Part shown: in pieces, positions 44,588 through 53,838 of the stretch | Position numbering within the stretch: the stretch's first letter is position 1 | Layout: each line of letters begins with the position of its first letter | Assembly (NCBI GenBank): GCA_040397175.1 | Contig: JBBAWM010000001.1 | Span: forward strand, 25,976 to 89,975 | Direction: 5' to 3' | DNA from: Candidatus Limnocylindrus sp. | Lineage (GTDB): Bacteria; Chloroflexota; Limnocylindria; Limnocylindrales; Limnocylindraceae | DNA length: 64,000 nucleotides | The notes under the pieces: generated by a model | What the model was told of the DNA's origin: nothing | What the model saw: only the letters and a program-made list of their open reading frames with translations | Database searches by the model: none | Translations under genes and position numbers: made by a program

Positions 44588-46189
44588 GTGCGAATCACGA
44601 AGCTCGTGTTTGTGGGCTTGGCGCTCACACTCTTCACAGGACTTGGTGGATCCAATGTCCGCGCATCGGTCACCCCAATTATTGACGTGGTTCCGGCCGC
44701 TGGCAAGATTGAGGGATCAGGCGCAACCTTCCCACTCAGCCAGTATCGAGATTGGTTCTCGACCTTCACCGACATTAACCGCGATGTCGCGTGCGAAAGC
44801 ACCTCCGACACCGACGGCGACAACGAACTTGCTGATTGCTCGAATCCAGATAACAACATCAAGCAGTTTGATCCAGGTAATTATGTCGATGCGTCAGGCA
44901 AGGGTGGCCTAGTACTTGGCTACACCGGCGTCGGGTCGGGCACTGGCAAGAAGAACTTCTATGGTTCCTCATGCCGCAAGGACACCCAGATGTTCTCTGG
45001 TACCGACTCGCTCTTGAGCACGGAAAACTACAACATGATTGTGAGCGGTTCGCATAACAGCGTGAATGCCGGCTGCAGCACCGCTGGCTCATCGCCAATT
45101 GGCCTGAACGGCTACATCATGGTTCCAGCAACCGCTGGCGCCATTTCGTTGGTTTACAACATTCCAGGCCTGCTTCAGTACACTTCAACTGCGAGGACGA
45201 AGACCACTGCAGCTAGCCTGAACCTTGATGGCGCCACGGTGTGCGACATCTACACGGGCAAGATCAAGAAGTGGGACGATGCAAAGATCAAGGCCCTCAA
45301 CCCACTCGTGAAGACGAGCGGCACGGGTTCGCTGCCAAACCAGAACATCATCACCGTTGCTCGAGCTGAGAGCTCGGGAACCACGTTCATCTTTAGTACG
45401 TACCTCGCAAAGGCAAACGACAATGCCACCATGCGCCAGTGCGGCTTCAACACCGCATTCGGTAAGGCTGGCGTGGCTGGTCGAACTTTCACGACGAAGG
45501 AAGACGCAACTGCTATCACTCACGTCGATGGGGATCTCATCCCACAGGAAGAGACCCTTGGTGGCAAGTTCAACGAGCTCCGCAAGTTGAACAACGTCGT
45601 GGGTGGCGTCGCTACCCCTAACCCAATCACTGGTAAGGCAGCGAACGGTGGAATCGCGACCTATGTGTCAGCGACCCCATACACGTTCGGCTACGTCGAG
45701 CTTTCATACCAGGTGAAGTACAACCTGAAGGCAGCAAAGCTTCGCACGCTGACCGACGCGGCCGGCAGCAAGGCTAACTACATTGCTCCGTCGGTGGCCG
45801 GGACCACCGCTGCACTCAACGTTGCGTACGGAACCACCGCCAAGGTCACCGCGTCAAAGGTTATCAAGCCACCGACGACGGCGATCAGCGCTGGTGGGTT
45901 CATTCACCCCGTGTATCAGACCGGCCTCACCTCGTACCCAATCGTGGGTGTGACCTGGATCCTCACCTATACGGAGTGGGGATCGGGCGCAAACAAGAAC
46001 GGTGCGGACACCTCCATGACCAAGGGTCAGGTTCAGGGGCTCGTAGCCTTCCTGGACTGGATCCTCGATGAGGGTCAGGCTTCGTACAATCTGTACCAGG
46101 GGTACGCCCCACTCCCAGCGGCTCTGCGCACGAGGGCGCTTGCCGAGTTGATCACGATTCGCTACGACGGACAGCGCGTCCGACCGTAA
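44588..46189 (+). CDS. pstS: Phosphate ABC transporter substrate-binding protein, enlarged
   Basis: GSGATFP, GSG.G, F.GTD, R..SSGTT..F, GYVE, YPI; first gene of pstSCAB. Confidence 0.88.
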   Translation: MRITKLVFVGLALTLFTGLGGSNVRASVTPIIDVVPAAGKIEGSGATFPLSQYRDWFSTFTDINRDVACESTSDTDGDNELADCSNPDNNIKQFDPGNYVDASGKGGLVLGYTGVGSGTGKKNFYGSSCRKDTQMFSGTDSLLSTENYNMIVSGSHNSVNAGCSTAGSSPIGLNGYIMVPATAGAISLVYNIPGLLQYTSTARTKTTAASLNLDGATVCDIYTGKIKKWDDAKIKALNPLVKTSGTGSLPNQNIITVARAESSGTTFIFSTYLAKANDNATMRQCGFNTAFGKAGVAGRTFTTKEDATAITHVDGDLIPQEETLGGKFNELRKLNNVVGGVATPNPITGKAANGGIATYVSATPYTFGYVELSYQVKYNLKAAKLRTLTDAAGSKANYIAPSVAGTTAALNVAYGTTAKVTASKVIKPPTTAISAGGFIHPVYQTGLTSYPIVGVTWILTYTEWGSGANKNGADTSMTKGQVQGLVAFLDWILDEGQASYNLYQGYAPLPAALRTRALAELITIRYDGQRVRP

Positions 46190-46212
46190 CGAGCACGCAC
46201 AAGCGTACGGAC

Positions 46213-46242
46213 CGGGGAGGTCGCCGCAAGGCGACCTCCCCG
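46213..46242 (+). terminator. 13-bp hairpin between pstS and pstC
   Basis: CGGGGAGGTCGCC-GCAA-GGCGACCTCCCCG. Confidence 0.7.
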
Positions 46243-46274
46243 AATCCGTTCAGTAGCGAGAGAGGAGAGCGCAC

Positions 46275-47198
46275 ATGGCATTTAACCTGACCGGCTCGCG
46301 CAGCGCGCTCTCCCCTGACCGCGCCTTCCGTACGATCACCCTCGCTTGCGCTGCCGCCAGTGCGGCAGTCCTGGCGATCATCTTTGTGGTGCTGGTGCTT
46401 GGCTCCATTCCAGCACTTACCGCCACCTCATTCTTGGACTTCCTCAGTGCAAATGCCGGCCCAATCTTCGGGACGGTGGCCACCGCGCTCATCGCCATCG
46501 CCGTTGCTGGCCCAATCGGCATCCTCGCCGCCGTCTACCTTGTGGAGTTCGCGCCGAAGCGCCTGGCTATCGTGCTCACCTTCATCGTTGAGCTAATCGC
46601 CGCCATCCCTTCGGTTGTATTTGGTCTCTGGGCGCTTAACGACCTATCGATTCGACTCCGCGACTCGGTTGAATGGTGGGTCGCGAGCAGCATCGGCAAG
46701 TACATTCCCTTTTTCGGCGAAGACAGTGCGAACCCCGCCGCCGACTCTGTCTTCCGCGCTGGGTTCCTCGTTGGCATCATGATCATTCCCCTCGTGGTCT
46801 CACTGAGCCGAGAAATCATTCGTGCCGTACCAATCTCCCTTCGCGAGGGCTACATCGGCATGGGAGCAACGCGCTGGGAGACGATCCGCCAGGTGGTTCT
46901 CCCAACCGCCCGTGTCGGCATCATCGGTGCGCTCATGTTGGCGCTTGGCCGCGCCCTGGGCGAAACAATTGCTGTAACCATGGTGATCGGCGGTTCCAAC
47001 GATGTACCGGGAAGCATCTTCCAGCCCGGATCCACCATTGCTACTCGTATCGCCACGACCCTACCAGAGGCGAGCGACGATGTGAGGTCGGTCCTCATCG
47101 CGCTCGGCGTCATCCTCTTCTTCGTTTCGCTTGGCCTTAGCCTGGCAATGCGCCTTGCCGCCCGCCAAACCGCCAAGATCACTGCGAGCGTCAAGTGA
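46275..47198 (+). CDS. pstC: Phosphate ABC permease
   Basis: AAIPSVVFGLW, GATRWE, RALGETIAV. Confidence 0.93.
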   Translation: MAFNLTGSRSALSPDRAFRTITLACAAASAAVLAIIFVVLVLGSIPALTATSFLDFLSANAGPIFGTVATALIAIAVAGPIGILAAVYLVEFAPKRLAIVLTFIVELIAAIPSVVFGLWALNDLSIRLRDSVEWWVASSIGKYIPFFGEDSANPAADSVFRAGFLVGIMIIPLVVSLSREIIRAVPISLREGYIGMGATRWETIRQVVLPTARVGIIGALMLALGRALGETIAVTMVIGGSNDVPGSIFQPGSTIATRIATTLPEASDDVRSVLIALGVILFFVSLGLSLAMRLAARQTAKITASVK

Positions 47199-48064
47199 CC
47201 ACGGCTCGAACGCACGAGATGCTGGAGTCGGGAAGCCGCCGAGATACGCGCCGCCGTGTCTGGGACCGCTTCATGCGATTCACCGCGCTGGCGGCGACAA
47301 TTGCGGCAATCGTTCCCCTGATCGCGCTGATCTACTTTGTGACGACGCGAGCAATCCCGTGGCTCGACGCGGCACTCTTCGTGAACAATCCGCTCGACAA
47401 ACCGTCGGGTATTAGCAACGCAATCTTTGGTTCGCTACAGCTCACCACCGCGGCAATCCTTGCCGTCGCACCAGTTGGCATACTCGCGGCGATCTATCTC
47501 AACGAATATGCGTCGCCACGTCTTGTCTCCTGGTCGGAGCTGGTGATTGACGTGATGCTTGGTGTGCCAAGCATCGTGGTCGGCATGTTTGCCTTCATGG
47601 TGATCGTTCCCCAGCTAGGCGTATCCGCGGGCTCCGGCGTCGTTGCTATCGGCATCCTCATGTTGCCCATCGTGATTCGAACGACCCAAGAGGTGTTGCG
47701 CCTGGTACCGGCGAGCGTGCGTGAGGCGTCGCTCGCCCTCGGCGTTCCAGTGTGGAAGACCGTCACCTTCGTGGTGTGCCGCACGGCGTTTTCAGGGATC
47801 TTGACAGCCGTAATCTTGGCCTATAGCCGTGGCCTCGGTGAAACGGCGCCGTTACTCCTCACCGTGCGCGGTACCTTTGCGCAGAACTGGTTTGACTTCG
47901 GCACCACTATGAATGCCATGCCGCTCACGATCTATTCGTACTCAGGTGCGGCCGACTCACGCACCATTGGTCAAGCGTGGGCCGCAGCGCTTATCTTGAT
48001 GGCGATGGCGCTGGTCCTTAACATCATTGTTCGAGCACGAACTGTGAACAGTCGAGTAGCGTAA
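47195..48064 (+). CDS. pstA: Phosphate ABC permease
   Basis: [23 protein letters not shown]. Confidence 0.93.
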
Positions 48065-48078
48065 GGAGGAGGAAGAGC

Positions 48079-48954
48079 ATGGGAAGCGACGAGACCACGA
48101 GAAGCGCGACAAAGAGGACGACCGGTCGTCTCACAGGCGCTGATGGCGCCGATAGGGCCGTGGCTGATGCCCGTCCAGCGTCACAATATGCGCTCGAACT
48201 CAACAATGTCGAAGCGTTTTATGGCACCTTCCGGGCGGTAGCCGGCGTCAGCCTGAAGATTGCACCGAAGTCGGTGACCGCCTTCATCGGGCCATCTGGC
48301 TGTGGCAAGTCCACACTGCTCCGCGTGCTGAATCGCATGCACGAAACACTCCCGGGTACCTCAGTCAAGGGTGAGACGCTCCTCGACGGCGTCGATCTGT
48401 ACGGGCCGAAGGTCGACCCGGTCCGTGCGCGGCGCCTGGTCGGCATGGTCTTCCAGAAGCCAAACCCGTTCCCAACGATGTCCATCTTCGAGAACGTGAT
48501 CTCGGGCCTACGACTGGCTGGGGTTCGCTTCAAGAGTGAACTGGAAGGCGTTGCGGAGACCTCGCTGCGTAAGGCCGCTCTCTGGGATGAGGTCAAGGAC
48601 AAGCTCCACCAGCCAGGAACCTCCCTCTCGGGCGGACAACAGCAGCGTCTCTGCATTGCCCGCACAATCGCGGTGAAGCCAGAGATCGTACTCATGGACG
48701 AGCCGTGCTCTGCGCTCGATCCAGTCGCAACCTTGAAGGTCGAAGAGTTGGTCCGAGAGCTCGCGGTGGATTACACGATCGTCATCGTGACCCACAACAT
48801 GCAGCAGGCATCGCGCGTTTCCAACACCACCGCATTCTTCTCGATGAACGAGCAGCGTGCAGGGTATTTGGTGGAGATGGACGCGACAAACAAGATCTTC
48901 ACGAATCCTAAGGAGCAGCTCACGAGCGATTACGTGGCAGGACGCTTCGGTTGA
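48079..48954 (+). CDS. pstB: Phosphate ABC ATPase
   Basis: [42 protein letters not shown]. Confidence 0.95.
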
Positions 48955-50129
48955 TGCGCGCCCCTGGGTCACTCGCTGCACTCCTCACGAGCGCCGTGCT
49001 CGTTGTGGCAGCGTGTCGTCCTGGGACCGGAGAGCCCACGCCTTCGGCGTCGTCGATTGCTGGAGACCTTGTACCATCGCGCGAAGTTACGGTTGCCATC
49101 TCTCTCCCAGAGGGGAACTCGACGCTCGCCGCTGCGATTGCAGTGGCGGCGGGTTCCGAATCACTCGGTGGCTCCCAGATCACGGTCTCAACCTTCACTC
49201 CATTTGCAGGCGAAGAACAGTTCCAGTCGGGCCATCGTGACGGGCAGATTGATCTCTACCTGGCCACCGCTGGGGCAGTGCTGAGCGCACAAGCTTCGGG
49301 CGATACGGCCGATGATCTCGTACAGATCGCTGGGCTCCAAACGCATGACCTCCGCTCACTCATTTCGTACACCAGTGACAAGCTGACGTCGATTTCGAGC
49401 GGTTCGATCCTCATTCAAGGGCGCCCAGGTGATGAGTTGAGCCTTTTTGATCTCCTTGCCAGCCAAGAGGCGGCAAACCCTGGAAGCACCCCTGACCCAA
49501 AGAAGTTGACTTTCCTCTACTCGGCTGACCCCTCGGCACCCTTCGACATCACACCGCTTGTTGATGGCACCGCCGTAGCCGCCTGGGTCACCGACTTTGA
49601 CGGGCTCGCCCGTGCCTACGAGGCGTACCGAATGGATGACGGCACGCAGTACGGCATAGCTGGAGTCAAGCGCATCCTTACGACCAGCGCTGAAAGCCCG
49701 CTTGCTGGTGCTGGTATTTGGGCACACAAGATCGATCTTGGTAACCAGGACCTCCTCATCTCTACCGCTGCTTTCTTGGTATCGCTCGCGAGTGGAGCGG
49801 CCTCCTGTCGCGATGGCGCGCTTGACTGCGCTGGAGTTGTTGAGGCTGGAGCACTCTCTGATCGCAGCGGGGATTCTCTCATCTGGTCGATCAACGAGTT
49901 GAACCGTTCAATGTGGCCAGCACCGGAGGGTGTGCTTACCGTCAGCACGGCGGCAATCGATGCTGCGATCGCCACTGCGAATCAGGCTGGCTGGGCGATC
50001 GGGTCAATCAGCGCCGCGGACCTTGTTGACACACAAGCGCTCGAGCTCGCGGTCGATCACCTTCCCGCCGAACTCGATGTAAAGGGCTCCGCCTGGGTTT
50101 CGATTGAGGTGATGCTTCCACTCGATTAG
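48954..50129 (+). CDS. Lipoprotein, divergent NMT1/THI5-like ABC substrate-binding protein
   Basis: Lipobox VAAC; 'DLVQIA' and 'WSINELNRSMWP' resemble NMT1/THI5-type binding proteins (recalled similarity, not searched). Confidence 0.55.
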   Translation: MRAPGSLAALLTSAVLVVAACRPGTGEPTPSASSIAGDLVPSREVTVAISLPEGNSTLAAAIAVAAGSESLGGSQITVSTFTPFAGEEQFQSGHRDGQIDLYLATAGAVLSAQASGDTADDLVQIAGLQTHDLRSLISYTSDKLTSISSGSILIQGRPGDELSLFDLLASQEAANPGSTPDPKKLTFLYSADPSAPFDITPLVDGTAVAAWVTDFDGLARAYEAYRMDDGTQYGIAGVKRILTTSAESPLAGAGIWAHKIDLGNQDLLISTAAFLVSLASGAASCRDGALDCAGVVEAGALSDRSGDSLIWSINELNRSMWPAPEGVLTVSTAAIDAAIATANQAGWAIGSISAADLVDTQALELAVDHLPAELDVKGSAWVSIEVMLPLD

Positions 50130-50147: not shown

Positions 50148-50732
50148 CTAGGCGAACACCTGGTGGCAGGCGCGGCAGCGCGCCTCATACGTGTCATCCC
50201 CGGCCATGCCGCCGATAACGATCAGCTCGTCGTTGGCGCCTGCAGGCTTACCGCCACGTAGTCGCTGGGACCTCGTCGCCTCGCTGCCACAGATCACGCA
50301 GATAGCTGAGAGCTTCGTTACCTCGTCAGCGAGAGCAAGCAGTTCTGGAATCGTGGCAAATGGTCGGCCTGCAAAGTCCTGATCGAGACCGCTCACAATT
50401 ACCGTGCGTGGTGCCGCAACGATCTCCTCGATGATGGCGGGGAGATCTGAGCCAAAGAACTGCGCCTCTTCGATCGCGACTGCATCTGGGTCGAGGCGGG
50501 CAATCTCGCTGCGGATGGCGGTGGCGTCGGGCGCAACGACGCTCGGGAATCGGGTTCCGGTGCGGCTGACGACCTCGCCAGGGGTGACTCGCGTGTCGCG
50601 GGCGGGAGTGATGAGCAGAACACTCTGACCGGCAATCTGACGGCGGGTGAGGAGCCGCACGACCTCCGCGGTCTTGCCGCTGCTCATGCAGCCAGCGATC
50701 ACGTGGAGCCAGGGGCGACGCGGAATAGCCAT
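50148..50732 (-). CDS. tdk: Thymidine kinase
   Basis: GCMSSGKT, IEEAQFF, SGLDQDF, CVIC...YEARCRACH; leaderless TAGGAT-N7-ATG. Confidence 0.93.
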   Translation of the reverse strand: MAIPRRPWLHVIAGCMSSGKTAEVVRLLTRRQIAGQSVLLITPARDTRVTPGEVVSRTGTRFPSVVAPDATAIRSEIARLDPDAVAIEEAQFFGSDLPAIIEEIVAAPRTVIVSGLDQDFAGRPFATIPELLALADEVTKLSAICVICGSEATRSQRLRGGKPAGANDELIVIGGMAGDDTYEARCRACHQVFA

Positions 50733-50826
50733 GGCGGGAATCCTAGCGGAACCGCACCGCACCTGTCTGGTACGCAATCACCCGTACGATGCTTGTCTGC
50801 CTAGTAACCCGCCTGTAGGAGTCGAT

Positions 50827-51444
50827 ATGCAGACAGAGCGAGTTCTTTTGACGTCGCGCCACGCCGTGCGCGCGGTGGTGGTTGCGGGTGCGCTGGTGGT
50901 CGGGGCGACGGTCGGTCGCACCAGCGCCGCGTTCACCGCCACGGCACCAGTGACTGGTGGGGCCACCTCAGGAGTCGTCTCGTTGAGTACGGGTGGCGTG
51001 CAGCAGCTCACCTTCGGTGGCGCAACACTTACCAACATTGGGCCGGGCGCCACCTTCACGCAAACGGTTACGGTGCTGAACCAGTCGACGGTGACCACCC
51101 CATCAAGTCTCACCGACATCGCCCTGTGGAGTGACATCACCGGTACCTCGACCGCGGCGTCGGGGCTTGGCGCTGCGCTGCAAGTTACGATTACGCGAAG
51201 CATTGGCGGCGAGAGTGCAGAGACGCTGTATAACGGTGCACTGAACGGGCTCTCTGCATACGCGTCGTTCGCGAAACCGATTGGCGTGGCATGGAGCTCA
51301 CGGAATGGCGGTTCTGCGACGGGTGTTTCGGCAAAGAGCGCGACCTACACCTTTACATTCACCCTGCCTGCGAGTGCGACAACAGGGGCCGACTCCTCGG
51401 TAGCGGCAACCTTCACTTTTGAGGCACGCAACAAGACGCAATGA
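50827..51444 (+). CDS. TasA/CalY-like protein with a SipW-type signal peptide
   Basis: GRTSA|AFT cleavage motif, NIGPG...VTVLN, terminal FTFEA.N; SD AGGAG. Confidence 0.75.
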   Translation: MQTERVLLTSRHAVRAVVVAGALVVGATVGRTSAAFTATAPVTGGATSGVVSLSTGGVQQLTFGGATLTNIGPGATFTQTVTVLNQSTVTTPSSLTDIALWSDITGTSTAASGLGAALQVTITRSIGGESAETLYNGALNGLSAYASFAKPIGVAWSSRNGGSATGVSAKSATYTFTFTLPASATTGADSSVAATFTFEARNKTQ

Positions 51445-52289
51445 GCCCTATTCGACGGGTGGCCATTTGCTCGCTGGTGCTGATCGCTGTCATGTGGGTC
51501 GTTGGCGTGCGGTTGCTTGTCGTGACGGGCAACTCTATGGCTCCGAGCATTCGCGATGGAGACCTGGTAATGACAACAAGATTCGGGGGTGACAGTGGCG
51601 TTGGAACTATCGTATTAGTACAGCGACCGAGCGACGGCCAGTTGCTCCTGCATCGAGTCGTCGAACGCGGAACGGGGTGGTGGCGCACACAGGGTGACGC
51701 CAGCCTGAGCCCAGACGCAGAGCGAATCCCCGACACTGCGGTGCTCGGCACCCTTGTTGCGGTCATCCCGACGGGACTACTTCCGGGCTTGCGGCTTGAT
51801 GCCGCAGCTGCACAGTTCAGCTCCAATAGGAATGTCGGACTCAGCGTCACCTCGGCGTCAGGGGCGCGGGTGGTGCTGAGTGGCCCCGTTCTAGTCGGCG
51901 CAGACGCACTCGGGCGTCTTCTTCCGGGGGGACGTGCAACCTGGACGCTAACGCTGACGCCATGCCCAGTTGGGCTTAGCGGCGAATGCACGGGCGCCAC
52001 AAATACGCTGCGATTGGATCCAGATCGCTTTGCCTCTCTCGTGACGGGTGGCCTAGCGCGCTCGATACGGCTCACCACAACCTGCCGACCGGTTGGGACC
52101 ACGACCTGGACCGACTCCGCCGACCTCTTCACTGCCGCGTGGAGCTCGACCAACCTCGCGACGGGCCGCCTTGCGACGCTTTCTACTGGGGCGGGAGCGA
52201 GTGAGTGCCAGCTGCAGGTCGCCCTCCTCGGAAGCATCACGGCGGCGAATAGTGCCCTGACGCTGCCGCTCCGGTGGGGACCAGAGTGA
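51441..52289 (+). CDS. SipW/SEC11-type signal peptidase fused to a C-terminal TasA-like domain
   Basis: TGNSMAP (Ser), GDLV, LHRV (His), TQGDA, PD motifs plus a ~160-aa extension. Confidence 0.8.
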   Translation: MSPIRRVAICSLVLIAVMWVVGVRLLVVTGNSMAPSIRDGDLVMTTRFGGDSGVGTIVLVQRPSDGQLLLHRVVERGTGWWRTQGDASLSPDAERIPDTAVLGTLVAVIPTGLLPGLRLDAAAAQFSSNRNVGLSVTSASGARVVLSGPVLVGADALGRLLPGGRATWTLTLTPCPVGLSGECTGATNTLRLDPDRFASLVTGGLARSIRLTTTCRPVGTTTWTDSADLFTAAWSSTNLATGRLATLSTGAGASECQLQVALLGSITAANSALTLPLRWGPE

Positions 52290-53053
52290 GCGTGACCTAT
52301 TGGTGGGTTCGCCTTGCGCTGCCACTCGCGCTGATCGCCATTGCCACCGCAGGGGCCGCATGGTCGCCGCGTCTCGATCTTCCGCTCACCACGGGTGCCT
52401 GGAGCGCGCCAGGAGGCATCAGTAGTGGGCTGCTGCTCTGGTACGACACAGCAGAGACTGGAACGATGTCACTCGCGCCAAAGCTGCGCTACTGGTTTGA
52501 TAAGTCGGGCGAGGCACAACACGCACAGGTCAGCACGGGGCAATTTCAGCCATATCCAACACTTGCCTCGGGAATCGCTGGCCTGCAATTCAGCGGTGCC
52601 GCTGTGCAGTTACCAACTAGCATCCCACTTGAACCGATGACACTGATCTTGGTCTTTCGGCAATCGAACGATGGGCTAAGTCAGCCGCTCGTTGGAAGCA
52701 GCACGCGCTTCTCGGGAATTTCAATGGAGTTCGGTCGCTTACGCGTGTATAGCAACGGGCAATCGACGGGCGCTTCGACCGCTCGCACCGCAACCGGTCT
52801 GACTATCACCACTGTGCGCACCGCAGCGGGTGCCGCGGACGGATTTCAGTACAACGGCGGCGCCGAAACAGCCTTTAGCCTCACCACCTCAGAGAGCATG
52901 AACTGGATCGGTGGGATGTTTGTTGCTGGTACCCCGAAGTACTTCGTTGGCACGATCATGGAGGTGCTGATCTGGGGGCGATCACTCTCATCAAGCGAGC
53001 TGCAGGCGGCGCACCGCGCCCTCGGCGCAAAGTGGGGGATCAGCGTCCCGTGA
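52286..53053 (+). CDS. Secreted LamG/concanavalin-like protein with a SipW-type signal peptide
   Basis: ATAGA|AWS; LLLWYD, WFDKSG, GTIMEVLIWGRSLSSSE, KWG motifs; GTGA overlap. Confidence 0.7.
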   Translation: MSVTYWWVRLALPLALIAIATAGAAWSPRLDLPLTTGAWSAPGGISSGLLLWYDTAETGTMSLAPKLRYWFDKSGEAQHAQVSTGQFQPYPTLASGIAGLQFSGAAVQLPTSIPLEPMTLILVFRQSNDGLSQPLVGSSTRFSGISMEFGRLRVYSNGQSTGASTARTATGLTITTVRTAAGAADGFQYNGGAETAFSLTTSESMNWIGGMFVAGTPKYFVGTIMEVLIWGRSLSSSELQAAHRALGAKWGISVP

Positions 53054-53067
53054 GGATTCGCCGAAGT

Positions 53068-53838
53068 TTACGAGGGCAGCTTTGCAGCCGCGGCGATGTC
53101 GAGGAGCCATGTTGCGGTTCGAATCAGCGCCGCCTTCGCGGGTGCGTCGGCCACCGCTGTTGAGCTGGTAAAGATTCGTGCGAGCGCTTCGGCCTTGCCA
53201 GCACCAGGGGCAATGGCGAGCACCTCACGGGCGCTCGTGAGCACGCCGAGCGAGAAGGAGAGGCGCGGCACATGTGGCTCAATGTGGGTCGGGGCCGGAA
53301 CTCCTGCAGCCACCGGTGCCCCGTCGAGGGCGAGCGGCGAGCCTGGGAATACGCTCAGGCAGTGGCCGTCGCCGCCAATGCCGATGAGCAGAAGGTCGAA
53401 GATCGGAAAACCTGCAGACGTGTGTGGCACCCCAGCGCCACGCAGCTCCGCGAGATAGGCGCGAACGGCCGATGGTGCATCTGCAGCGGCCGTTGGCCAC
53501 GGGTGGACGGCACTTGGCGAGAGCGGCGAGTTGGCACCCGCAGCGTCTGTGTTGAGCAGTTCAGTGTCGAGCGGATAGACGTTGGAGAGCGGGTTGACCC
53601 GCGGCACGACCCGGTCGTCGCCGAACCAGATCTGCGTTGCCCCCCACGGCATGCGGGCGGCTCGTGATGGCTCGCGGAGTGCGCGATACAACGCAGCAGG
53701 AGTTGAGCCGCCAGTGCTACAGAGATGAAAGACGCCGCGTGCGGCAACGGCGGCGATCGCCGCGTCAACGATGCGATCCGCCGCCGCCTCGGCAACGCCC
53801 GTGGCACTGCCCAAGATGCGAACCGCGGGGCTCATCAT
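53068..53838 (-). CDS. pgl: 6-phosphogluconolactonase
   Basis: TGGSTP, WFGDDR.V, GIGGDGH..S.FP. Confidence 0.92.
   Translation of the reverse strand: MMSPAVRILGSATGVAEAAADRIVDAAIAAVAARGVFHLCSTGGSTPAALYRALREPSRAARMPWGATQIWFGDDRVVPRVNPLSNVYPLDTELLNTDAAGANSPLSPSAVHPWPTAAADAPSAVRAYLAELRGAGVPHTSAGFPIFDLLLIGIGGDGHCLSVFPGSPLALDGAPVAAGVPAPTHIEPHVPRLSFSLGVLTSAREVLAIAPGAGKAEALARIFTSSTAVADAPAKAALIRTATWLLDIAAAAKLPS

Follow-up and report, generated by a model that had tools for sequence, protein, structure and literature searches.

Fibres of the TasA type are known to scaffold biofilms. In the tapA-sipW-tasA locus of Bacillus subtilis (8AUR; PMC9674648, PMC10151520), three genes encode a TasA-fold major subunit with an A-F N-terminus, a dedicated Ser-His peptidase and a second substrate, TapA, which has the same kind of N-terminal strand and would initiate the chain. 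The haloarchaeal tafi system (PMC11821415, PMC12337348) consists of the pilins TafA and TafE, the tip TafC, the peptidase TafD, the anchor TafF and the DUF5305 protein TafG. The AbpX, AbpA, thread and cannula filaments (bioRxiv 10.64898/2026.01.04.697558; PMC9245690) have an aromatic residue at mature position 2 and come from loci with a tip, minor subunits and a dedicated peptidase.

Here we compare these systems with a three-gene cassette of Candidatus Limnocylindrus sp., found in a window of 64,000 nucleotides (the whole stretch of DNA that was analysed). A sequence-only reading had proposed that the cassette encodes a surface fibre with a pilin-like subunit, a SipW-like peptidase and a lectin-like tip; the observation was confirmed and the interpretation largely holds. 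Our main reading, to which we give a probability of about 0.6, is that the three co-conserved genes build a TasA-type surface fibre that is matured by the peptidase, capped by the gene 3 protein and seated on a domain of gene 2. That the product is a donor-strand fibre is, taken alone, highly probable.

Layout, conservation and host of the cassette

The three open reading frames lie on the forward strand of the window: gene 1 at 50827-51444 (205 aa), gene 2 at 51441-52289 (282 aa) and gene 3 at 52286-53053 (255 aa). Genes 1 and 2 overlap in the stop/start sequence ATGA (51441-51444), genes 2 and 3 in GTGA (52286-52289). A Shine-Dalgarno-like AGGAG, which probably serves gene 1, is located 5 nt upstream of its ATG (50817-50821, +). 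Outside the cassette are, on the minus strand, the divergent thymidine kinase gene tdk (50148-50732; PF00265, E 1e-41) and the convergent 6-phosphogluconolactonase gene pgl (53068-53838; PF01182, E 2e-45). The arrangement reported earlier, three overlapping genes between tdk and pgl, was verified in its coordinates, overlaps and both flanks. Neither a promoter-like nor a terminator-like site turned up for the cassette, profile searches revealed no further copies of the three genes elsewhere in the host genome, and the cassette encodes no separate anchor protein besides the trio.

Among the 20 loci with gene 1 homologues that were fetched across the genus, 19 kept the order of the trio, and in the 20th a contig edge falls inside gene 1. 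The dN/dS ratio of the three genes was 0.04-0.22 in every computable pair (19/20); the trio is under purifying selection. Because the order is kept and dN/dS is low, the arrangement is more than a matter of chance. Seven genomes cleanly lack the cassette, and there tdk directly adjoins pgl. Thus, the three genes were either present together or gone together across the genomes compared, and the co-conservation expected from synteny in relatives was observed. A recent genomic island was rejected as an explanation, as the GC content of the cassette matches its flanks and the insertion site is fixed across the genus.

The host genome measures 1.38 Mb at 91.5% completeness and homologues at 84-86% identity belong to Ca. 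Limnocylindrus, a lineage described as epilimnetic in PMC6169038, which agrees with the streamlined, planktonic host that had been assumed. The further suggestion that such a fibre would be unexpected in this host survives in part. The cassette does contain an unusual element, which is the gene 2 fusion described below; the fibre as such is less surprising, because TasA homologues have been published from Chloroflexota (PMC9245690), a LamG tip has been published for tafi, and a sister family contains pilin-sipW loci. The main text of a genome paper on the host class (PMC13212565) has no mention of pili, SipW, TasA, attachment or words in adhes-, and a search of the open-access full-text literature found no paper that treats the cassette or a SipW-pilin fusion that cleaves itself.

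Predicted shaft subunit and tip protein

Gene 1 (50827-51444, +) is predicted to encode the major subunit, a member of the TasA superfamily, from its AF2 model, its structure matches and a profile link to PF12389 pilins. The protein consists of a signal peptide (residues 1-34) and a mature part of 171 aa that is 31% Ser+Thr and has no Cys. Its AF2 model (pLDDT 86.6) had the TasA fibre 8AUR as its top Foldseek match (E 2e-5, TM 0.57), the sole match below E 1e-3. The same structure also came first in the VIA search (Z 8.9, rmsd 3.2, 151 residues aligned; about 15% identity between TasA and gene 1 in the structural alignment), and the top five VIA matches were all donor-strand filaments: TasA at Z 8.9, thread, AbpA and TLP-1b at 7.0 and Hyper2 at 6.9. 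The TasA-like fold foreseen by the sequence-only reading was therefore recovered in the model, with 8AUR first in two structure searches.

Direct family searches gave a different picture from the one that had been expected, as most of the family HMMs stayed silent or below threshold. Gene 1 had no direct match to PF12389, TIGR04088 or any other family HMM, and just one of its 14 homologues matched PF12389 (E 0.23). TIGR04088 (cut-off 19 bits) had no match in gene 1, in gene 3 or in the whole genome, nor among eight close homologues of gene 1 and three of gene 3; PF12389 was not matched by gene 3 either. When gene 1, its alignment and the gene 3 alignment were searched against the sequences of solved structures, nothing came up at E < 0.01. 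The gene 1 profile gave a full-length match to one protein, P0137 (E 4e-5), which passes both PF12389 and TIGR04088; the profile-profile comparison of gene 1 with the sister-family pilins gave 98.1% and E 9e-14, and seven of the eight sister-family pilins tested pass the PF12389 cut-off. These full-length profile links to PF12389-positive proteins indicate indirectly that gene 1 is homologous to the PF12389 pilins, and the model indicates that it is a divergent TasA-superfamily subunit.

PF12389, which relatives of gene 1 match, is named for a metallo-endopeptidase, and gene 1 itself has no family match; both points would suit a secreted camelysin-type protease or an ordinary secreted protein with incidental neighbours. 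However, the mature protein has no His and only 3.5% Asp+Glu, the trio is present or missing as a unit and the top structure is a fibre, and we consider this explanation very improbable indeed. Gene 1 has a pI of 6.3 and no conserved acid at +4; since it is not acidic, calcium-driven assembly of the AbpX type was judged unlikely and rejected.

The predicted cleavage site GRTSA|AFT (residues 30-37) and the predicted N-terminal donor strand behind it occupy positions 50914-50979 (+), an assignment that draws on invariance and the model. Residues A34, A35, F36 and G49 were invariant in 14/14 gene 1 homologues, so the SipW-type motif noticed earlier is present and conserved at A34-A35-F36. In the monomer model, mature residues 1-17 have no secondary structure and the mean pLDDT of residues 1-10 is 47.

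Gene 3 (52286-53053, +) is predicted, from its sequence, HMM matches and Atlas matches, to encode the tip or initiator protein. It comprises a signal peptide (residues 1-24), a predicted donor strand from A25-W26 to about G37, and a LamG/ConA-like domain at about 48-255. The second SipW-type motif that had been pointed out, ATAGA|AWS (residues 20-27), is there as well, with A24 and W26 invariant in 15/15 homologues. PF13385 was matched by 14/15 homologues at E <= 0.1 (best 2e-6); gene 3 itself matched it at E 1.8e-4, below the cut-off (LamG_3 score 22.1 vs 27.6 bits). In the Atlas, gene 3 matched phage clusters of LamG type at 0.98, including one in which 24% of the members carry PF13385, and phrog_10356 was matched at E 3e-5. 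No match to gene 3 was obtained by tblastn in 50,697 phage records. Gene 3 thus appears to combine a donor strand with a LamG-like domain and, judging by its length and HMM coverage, apparently has no acceptor domain.

This resemblance to LamG-like domains of phage virions is one of three observations that would fit a short stalk in place of a long adhesive or matrix fibre. Such a stalk, with a tip, a membrane base and between them no more than a few gene 1 subunits, would display a lectin at the cell surface for glycan capture or as a decoy. The others are that the host, a free-living rod of small size, has a genome of 1.4 Mb, and that translational coupling suggests modest ratios of the products. 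Gene 1 argues against a stalk: it is first in order, its ribosome-binding site is the clearest and it belongs to the best-conserved parts (dN/dS 0.04-0.08), as expected of a repeating subunit, and its closest structures are all long filaments. We therefore regard a stalk as improbable and keep the fibre as the preferred reading.

Gene 2, a peptidase fused to a probable pilin-like domain

Gene 2 (51441-52289, +; 282 aa) encodes a SipW/SEC11-like signal peptidase with a fused, probably pilin-like domain. A single N-terminal membrane helix (residues 3-21; 51447-51503, +), seen in the model and as a hydropathy peak of 2.58, is followed by the S26 peptidase domain (residues 24-110; 51510-51770, +), which has S32, H71-R72 and G85-D86 and no catalytic Lys. 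These residues were invariant in 15/15 diverse and 120/120 closer homologues, which upholds the earlier assignment of SEC11/SipW Ser-His motifs, and on this pattern we assign the catalytic Ser and His and the downstream GD motif. The fold of the domain matched SipA 4n31 (Z 9.6) and SEC11C 7p2q (Z 8.4), and the matches to SipA, SEC11C and LepB span Z 8.3-9.6. TIGR02228 was matched at E 2e-8 with 34.3 bits, below its cut-off of 51.85 (best of three gene 2 homologues, 43.2 bits), and the SipW model NF046067 at 14 bits, below its cut-off of 190.

Gene 2 is no plain SipW, and it has an extra domain that the sequence-only reading left unmentioned. Its model has no membrane helix after the catalytic domain, where the sister-family peptidases have one, and no membrane segment follows residue 117; the C-terminal membrane helix of SipW is gone and residues 125-282 form an additional domain. 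Gene 2 as the housekeeping signal peptidase was also rejected, since a separate canonical Lep is encoded elsewhere in the genome (contig C4, E 2.5e-40). By its sequence, gene 2 is a Ser-His S26 peptidase distinct from this housekeeping Lep. According to PMC10269814, Lep-type enzymes cut poorly when the P2' residue is aromatic. From the signal peptides of the two small proteins, which have a small last residue with x-Phe/Trp behind it, from the Ser-His S26 residues of gene 2 and from the separate Lep, we infer that gene 2 is the dedicated peptidase of genes 1 and 3.

Between the two domains is a short linker of low pLDDT (residues 111-124; 51771-51827, +) that ends in AAA|QFS, an internal counterpart of the cleavage motif in the substrates. 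In the gene 2 homologues 12-20 residues separate the invariant Pro110 from this internal site; F126 is invariant in 15/15 and A124 is found in 13/15, with Gly or Thr at -1 in the other two. With a matrix trained without gene 2, the site ranked first of about 273 positions in 11/15 homologues and within the top four in 15/15, and with a matrix trained on sister-family pilins alone it ranked first in just 3/15; the 15 homologues are kin and not independent. Unlike normal signal-peptidase substrates, the site has no hydrophobic h-region before it. We put self-cleavage of gene 2 here at slightly under even odds.

The C-terminal beta domain (residues 125-282, 158 residues; 51813-52286, +) is probably a minor or base pilin. 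It has invariant L161-P-G-G, C215 and C256 and a dN/dS of 0.14-0.22. The best structure matches of this domain in the two-domain model were the cannula pilins 9h8b and 9bac (Z 7.2, rmsd 3.8-4.1, 118-119 residues aligned), where Z 7.2 is a middling score within the "common arrangement" range of the tool and unrelated beta-sandwiches follow at 6.5. Residues 140-282 align with residues 20-147 of the cannula pilin, which would place residues 125-139 opposite its donor strand. The Atlas lead for the domain was PF12389 at 0.87. Profile-profile comparisons with gene 1 (probability 0.15%) and with the sister-family pilins (0.07%) were not significant, hmmsearch of pilin profiles on 15 C-domains reached at most 6.5 bits, and Foldseek on the two-domain model gave no match at E <= 1e-3; TasA 8AUR was absent among the matches listed for this model. 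A search for longer proteins with the domain yielded a single orthologue of 296 aa and, as a partial match, one protein of 445 aa, which is weak evidence. On balance, we think it slightly more likely than not that the gene 2 domain belongs to the fibre.

The fibre could also be real with the C-domain as a permanent accessory part, never cut and never in the fibre, whose task would be to hold precursors or to act as their chaperone, comparable to the Ig-like second domain of TafD in haloarchaea or to a DUF5305 helper. According to PMC11821415, the second extracellular domain of TafD has an unclear function and resembles TafA (Z 5.7), and SPase-DUF5305 fusions, Chloroflexota included, are described in bioRxiv 10.64898/2026.01.04.697558; the C-domain of gene 2 has, moreover, diverged from pilins beyond profile recognition and its internal site has no preceding h-region. 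However, DUF5305 was absent from 15/15 C-domains at E <= 1, and gene 2 lacks the flanking membrane helices of DUF5305 or of TafD, which has four. Although the preceding linker varies in length and sequence, position -1 stays small and position +2 stays Phe, and a purely structural domain needs neither. We hold an accessory domain of this kind to be quite unlikely.

Proposed assembly and comparison with known systems

In the preferred reading, that of a fibre with gene 2 at its base, gene 2 would cut the signal peptides of genes 1 and 3. Mature gene 1, with its predicted TasA fold and free N-terminal strand, would polymerise by donor-strand exchange, by analogy with TasA. Gene 3 would start the chain at one end and display its LamG-like, glycan-binding domain, as described for TapA/TafC; it could sit only at one end, because it has a donor strand and apparently no acceptor domain. 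The C-domain of gene 2 would act as a minor pilin: held at the membrane through the peptidase, it would take up the strand of the last gene 1 subunit, and cutting at A124|Q125 would free it, so that the fibre is released or extended. More speculatively, the fibre may attach to particles, aggregates or cell-surface glycans. The full chain of events, in which gene 2 is both signal peptidase and membrane base of its own pilus, catches the last donor strand, cuts itself at a site without an h-region and sheds the fibre, we regard as doubtful.

If true, a pilus with tip, shaft, anchor and release would be complete in three genes, and most lineages of this streamlined and abundant genus of freshwater plankton would have retained it. 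A conserved TasA-type fibre in a planktonic genus with genomes of 1.1-1.4 Mb implies a surface appendage. The peptidase-pilin fusion bears on how TasA-type fibres are anchored and released, and also on signal-peptidase cutting at a site without a hydrophobic signal region. The cassette is small enough to be expressed whole, and lineages with and without it at the same site allow an ecological comparison of free-living and particle-associated fractions.

Among the close counterparts are pilin-sipW-accessory loci of the sister family, which belongs to the same taxonomic order and has larger genomes. Apart from their homologous pilin, 14 of the 15 loci fetched have a SipW-like gene directly behind it, and there is usually another substrate with an x-F/Y-T start. 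Unlike gene 2, their peptidases retain a membrane helix at the C-terminus (in 13 complete proteins, the 19-residue hydropathy peak is 1.84-2.93), and the 15 loci contained neither the C-domain of gene 2 nor gene 3. In one of these peptidases (L043), a membrane helix and LSSA|AFGD connect the enzyme to a secreted domain; fusions of a peptidase with a substrate do therefore arise in the lineage.

Compared with tapA-sipW-tasA, the cassette has the same three kinds of protein, and its second substrate is LamG-like where TapA has an Ig fold, its peptidase combines a single membrane helix with a fused, probably pilin-like domain behind an internal cleavage motif, and its host is a planktonic member of the Chloroflexota. 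To the AbpX, AbpA, thread and cannula filaments it has fold matches (Z 6.5-7.2), and it shares with them the aromatic second residue and, as predicted, a locus that combines tip and minor subunits with a peptidase of its own; gene 1 is not acidic like AbpX and gene 2 is not of the ten-helix AbpX type. Tafi resembles what is predicted for the cassette in the LamG-bearing tip, the donor-strand shaft and an S26 peptidase (Ser, His-Arg) of its own, whose second extracellular domain resembles a pilin. It differs in having seven genes, Tat export, a separate anchor and a DUF5305 helper, four membrane helices in TafD and a pilin domain of TafC's own, while in gene 2 the second domain comes directly after the catalytic domain, behind the cleavage-like motif. 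Gene 2 is likewise distinct from the SPase-DUF5305 fusions, in both its domain and its membrane topology. The TasA-type fibre, the LamG tip and the two-domain peptidase all have precedent, and the unusual element of the cassette is the gene 2 fusion.

The cassette and its predicted fibre subunits

The motifs quoted in the sequence-only reading and the three overlapping genes that it placed between tdk and pgl are present in the window sequence. Gene 1 (50827-51444), gene 2 (51441-52289) and gene 3 (52286-53053) are plus-strand ORFs coupled by ATGA and GTGA overlaps, gene 2 overlapping both of its neighbours. tdk lies divergently on one side and pgl convergently on the other, and the GC content of the cassette is that of its flanks. 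The host genome is 1.38 Mb (completeness 91.5%), and gene 1 homologues that share 84-86% identity carry the name Ca. Limnocylindrus, so the host probably belongs to this genus, which is described as small rods of a freshwater, chiefly epilimnetic lineage (PMC6169038). A pstSCAB-like phosphate uptake operon, recognised from translations only, occupies positions 44588-48954 (GC falls to 0.55 in its pstS-like gene); downstream of it, 48951-50129 encodes a predicted 392-aa lipoprotein without a family match, which in several relatives lies directly 5' of gene 1, tdk being missing from the site there.

Gene 1 had no direct match in Pfam or NCBIfam, and the check for a SipW-dependent signal came back negative, as TIGR04088 had no match anywhere in the host genome. 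A profile of mature gene 1 matched 18 representatives among 1.84 billion; among these, P0137 aligned over the full length (E 4e-5) and itself scored above cut-off for both PF12389 and TIGR04088. Sister-family homologues (15 fetched) aligned with gene 1 at a probability of 98.1%, and seven of the eight tested passed PF12389. AlphaFold2 predicted the mature protein at pLDDT 86.6 but left its N-terminal strand unplaced. When this model was searched, the TasA fibre was the only Foldseek match below E 1e-3; it also led the VIA matches (Z 8.9, rmsd 3.2, 151 aligned), among which the next were the Sulfolobus thread, AbpA, TLP-1b and Hyper2 (Z 6.9-7.0). Both structure searches and the profile link to PF12389-passing proteins bear out the proposed TasA likeness, and on the predicted model gene 1 is a divergent TasA-superfamily subunit. 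It is rich in Ser/Thr, lacks Cys and is not acidic; we infer that the predicted subunit polymerises. In a gene 1-like pilin from a metagenome (P0131), the pilin domain is interrupted midway by an RCC1 propeller of seven repeats.

Past its signal peptide, gene 3 reads A-W-S-x8-10-G, the same layout as the gene 1 strand. Over the rest of the protein, 14 of 15 homologues gave a weak LamG_3 match; Atlas clusters of phage LamG-like proteins (0.98) and a section of a family of phage virion proteins were matched as well. A protein that has a donor strand but lacks an acceptor domain could sit only at one end of a chain, and such a predicted role for gene 3 matches those described for TapA, whose N-terminus is AFHDI compared to AFNDI in TasA (PMC10151520), and for TafC, the tafi tip protein with a laminin G-like domain (PMC11821415).

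A peptidase joined to a beta domain

The S26 domain of gene 2 (residues 24-110) matched TIGR02228 below cut-off (E 2e-8), while its fold matched SipA (Z 9.6) and SEC11C (Z 8.4). Ser32, His71-Arg72 and Gly85-Asp86 are invariant, and the Ser and His-Arg residues agree with those reported for TafD. These residues and the fold agree with the proposed SipW/SEC11-type assignment. A canonical Lep is encoded elsewhere in the host genome; an aromatic P2' residue makes for poor cleavage by Lep-type enzymes, a rationale stated for SipW (PMC10269814).

In the sister family, a SipW-like gene lies directly behind the pilin in 14 of 15 loci fetched, and a hydrophobic C-terminal segment is kept in the 13 complete proteins (peak hydropathy 1.84-2.93). 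Gene 2 instead continues with a linker of 12-20 residues and a cleavage-like motif (small-small-small|x-F-[ST]) and ends in a beta domain of 158 residues. The hydropathy peak of this region is 1.09-1.96 in 15 homologues, overlapping the low end of the sister-family range, but in host gene 2 the peak window covers the last catalytic-domain strand in the model. In one sister-family SipW-like peptidase of 423 aa (L043:5587-6855, genome G187), membrane segments and a complete signal peptide (LSSA|AFGD) connect the enzyme to a secreted domain; at locus L046 a domain resembling it has a gene of its own. L043 is a plausible intermediate for fusions like gene 2.

We scored the internal site with a nine-position cleavage matrix whose training sites came from gene 1, gene 3 and the sister family but not from gene 2. 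Among 15 gene 2 homologues, which are kin, the site came top among about 273 positions in 11 and was within the top four in all; it ranked first in nine when gene 3 was left out of the training and in three with sister-family sites alone. A small residue is conserved at -1, which suggests that the enzyme can release the C-domain at the predicted site. LexA/UmuD-type proteins were among the fold matches of gene 2, and this related fold self-cleaves. The main rival is that the C-domain is a permanent accessory domain.

The structures closest to residues 140-282 were the cannula pilins 9h8b and 9bac, at a middling Z of 7.2; an unrelated mannosidase domain also matched (Z 6.5). The Atlas gave a sub-threshold lead, a cluster in which 14% of the members carry PF12389, and no profile-profile match to pilin profiles was significant. 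For these reasons the C-domain is only a probable pilin.

We propose as the most likely mechanism that gene 2 would mature genes 1 and 3, that gene 3 would donate the first strand and that gene 1 would extend the chain. The strand left free at the end of the chain needs an acceptor; with no other anchor encoded in the cassette, the membrane-tethered C-domain would be the natural candidate, and it might also be cut free by the enzyme, in cis or via a neighbour. That the putative fibre attaches to particles or glycans is a speculation of the sequence-only reading.

Distribution, loss and selection

A single-protein search found gene 1 in 18/24 genus and 0/16 sister-family genomes, and a profile search gave matches in 26/41 and 23/159, respectively. 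Gene 2 matches occurred in 28/41 genus genomes, 27 of them orthologues; the sole match in genome G048 is a different peptidase. The order of genes 1-2-3 is kept in 19 of the 20 fetched loci with gene 1, a contig edge falling inside gene 1 in the twentieth. Of 35 pgl loci within the genus, 23 have gene 3 as the nearest recognised neighbour (a 1.1-kb gene intervening in eight of these) and seven have tdk and no cassette; the neighbour was left unassigned in five.

Of the 40 pgl loci that we searched, 12 encode a PMT-family membrane glycosyltransferase (PF02366, E 4e-5; 387 aa) just downstream of pgl, in eight of them between pgl and gene 3 (its loci include L024:4342-5505 in G001, L076, L077, L079, L080, L083, L084, L085 and L062); the enzyme was not found in the host genome. 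It could glycosylate the Ser/Thr-rich gene 1 subunit, but its patchy distribution speaks against a required role.

On a single-gene pgl tree rooted with five sister-family sequences, the cassette-empty state requires two changes. Empty genomes G056 and G043 sit among cassette holders (97/87), which indicates loss in their lineage; loss is only likely for the remaining five, which form a long-branch clade without firm support for its position (94/91). In the cassette-lacking sister genomes G056 (L064) and G043 (L088) alike, the pgl match has a single TAG. Genome G016 has two pgl-gene 3 junctions (L073 on contig C49, L029 on C96) on different branches, with pgl 88% and 64% identical to that of the host, probably reflecting bin contamination. 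Pairwise dN/dS against five relatives was 0.04-0.08 for both gene 1 and gene 3, 0.14-0.22 for the gene 2 C-domain and 0.10-0.20 for its peptidase domain (four of five pairs computable).

A search of 41 genus genomes turned up a second, different SipW-type locus in three (L033:4050-6773 on C66 of G001; L032 and L035 in G048; L034 in G005); it was not found in the host genome. Its peptidase passes TIGR02228, and it is flanked by four small secreted paralogues (N-terminus FAA-x-I...G-x-G-x-A-x-V-x-AC-D) with no Pfam family above cut-off. G001 and G005 carry both this locus and the cassette, while G048 lacks the cassette.

Comparison with known systems

TasA homologues are reported from Chloroflexota (PMC9245690), TasA assembles by donor-strand exchange (PMC9674648), and TasA-superfamily loci include tip proteins, minor subunits and peptidase-DUF5305 fusions (bioRxiv 10.64898/2026.01.04.697558); TafF-type anchors are treated in PMC12337348. 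TLP-1, which forms donor-strand fibrils of unknown origin from pond water (PMC11494351), is not this protein (identity 12-13%). TafD is a two-domain peptidase with four helices whose Ig-like second domain resembles TafA (Z 5.7; PMC11821415). Our searches of the open-access literature found neither a description of the cassette nor one of a single-helix peptidase directly joined to a pilin-like domain via its own copy of the cleavage motif, though supplements may list either. Precedent thus exists for the system type and for peptidases whose second domain resembles a pilin. This is a real, conserved three-gene TasA-type cassette for a predicted fibre, set apart chiefly by its peptidase fusion and by its occurrence in a planktonic host.
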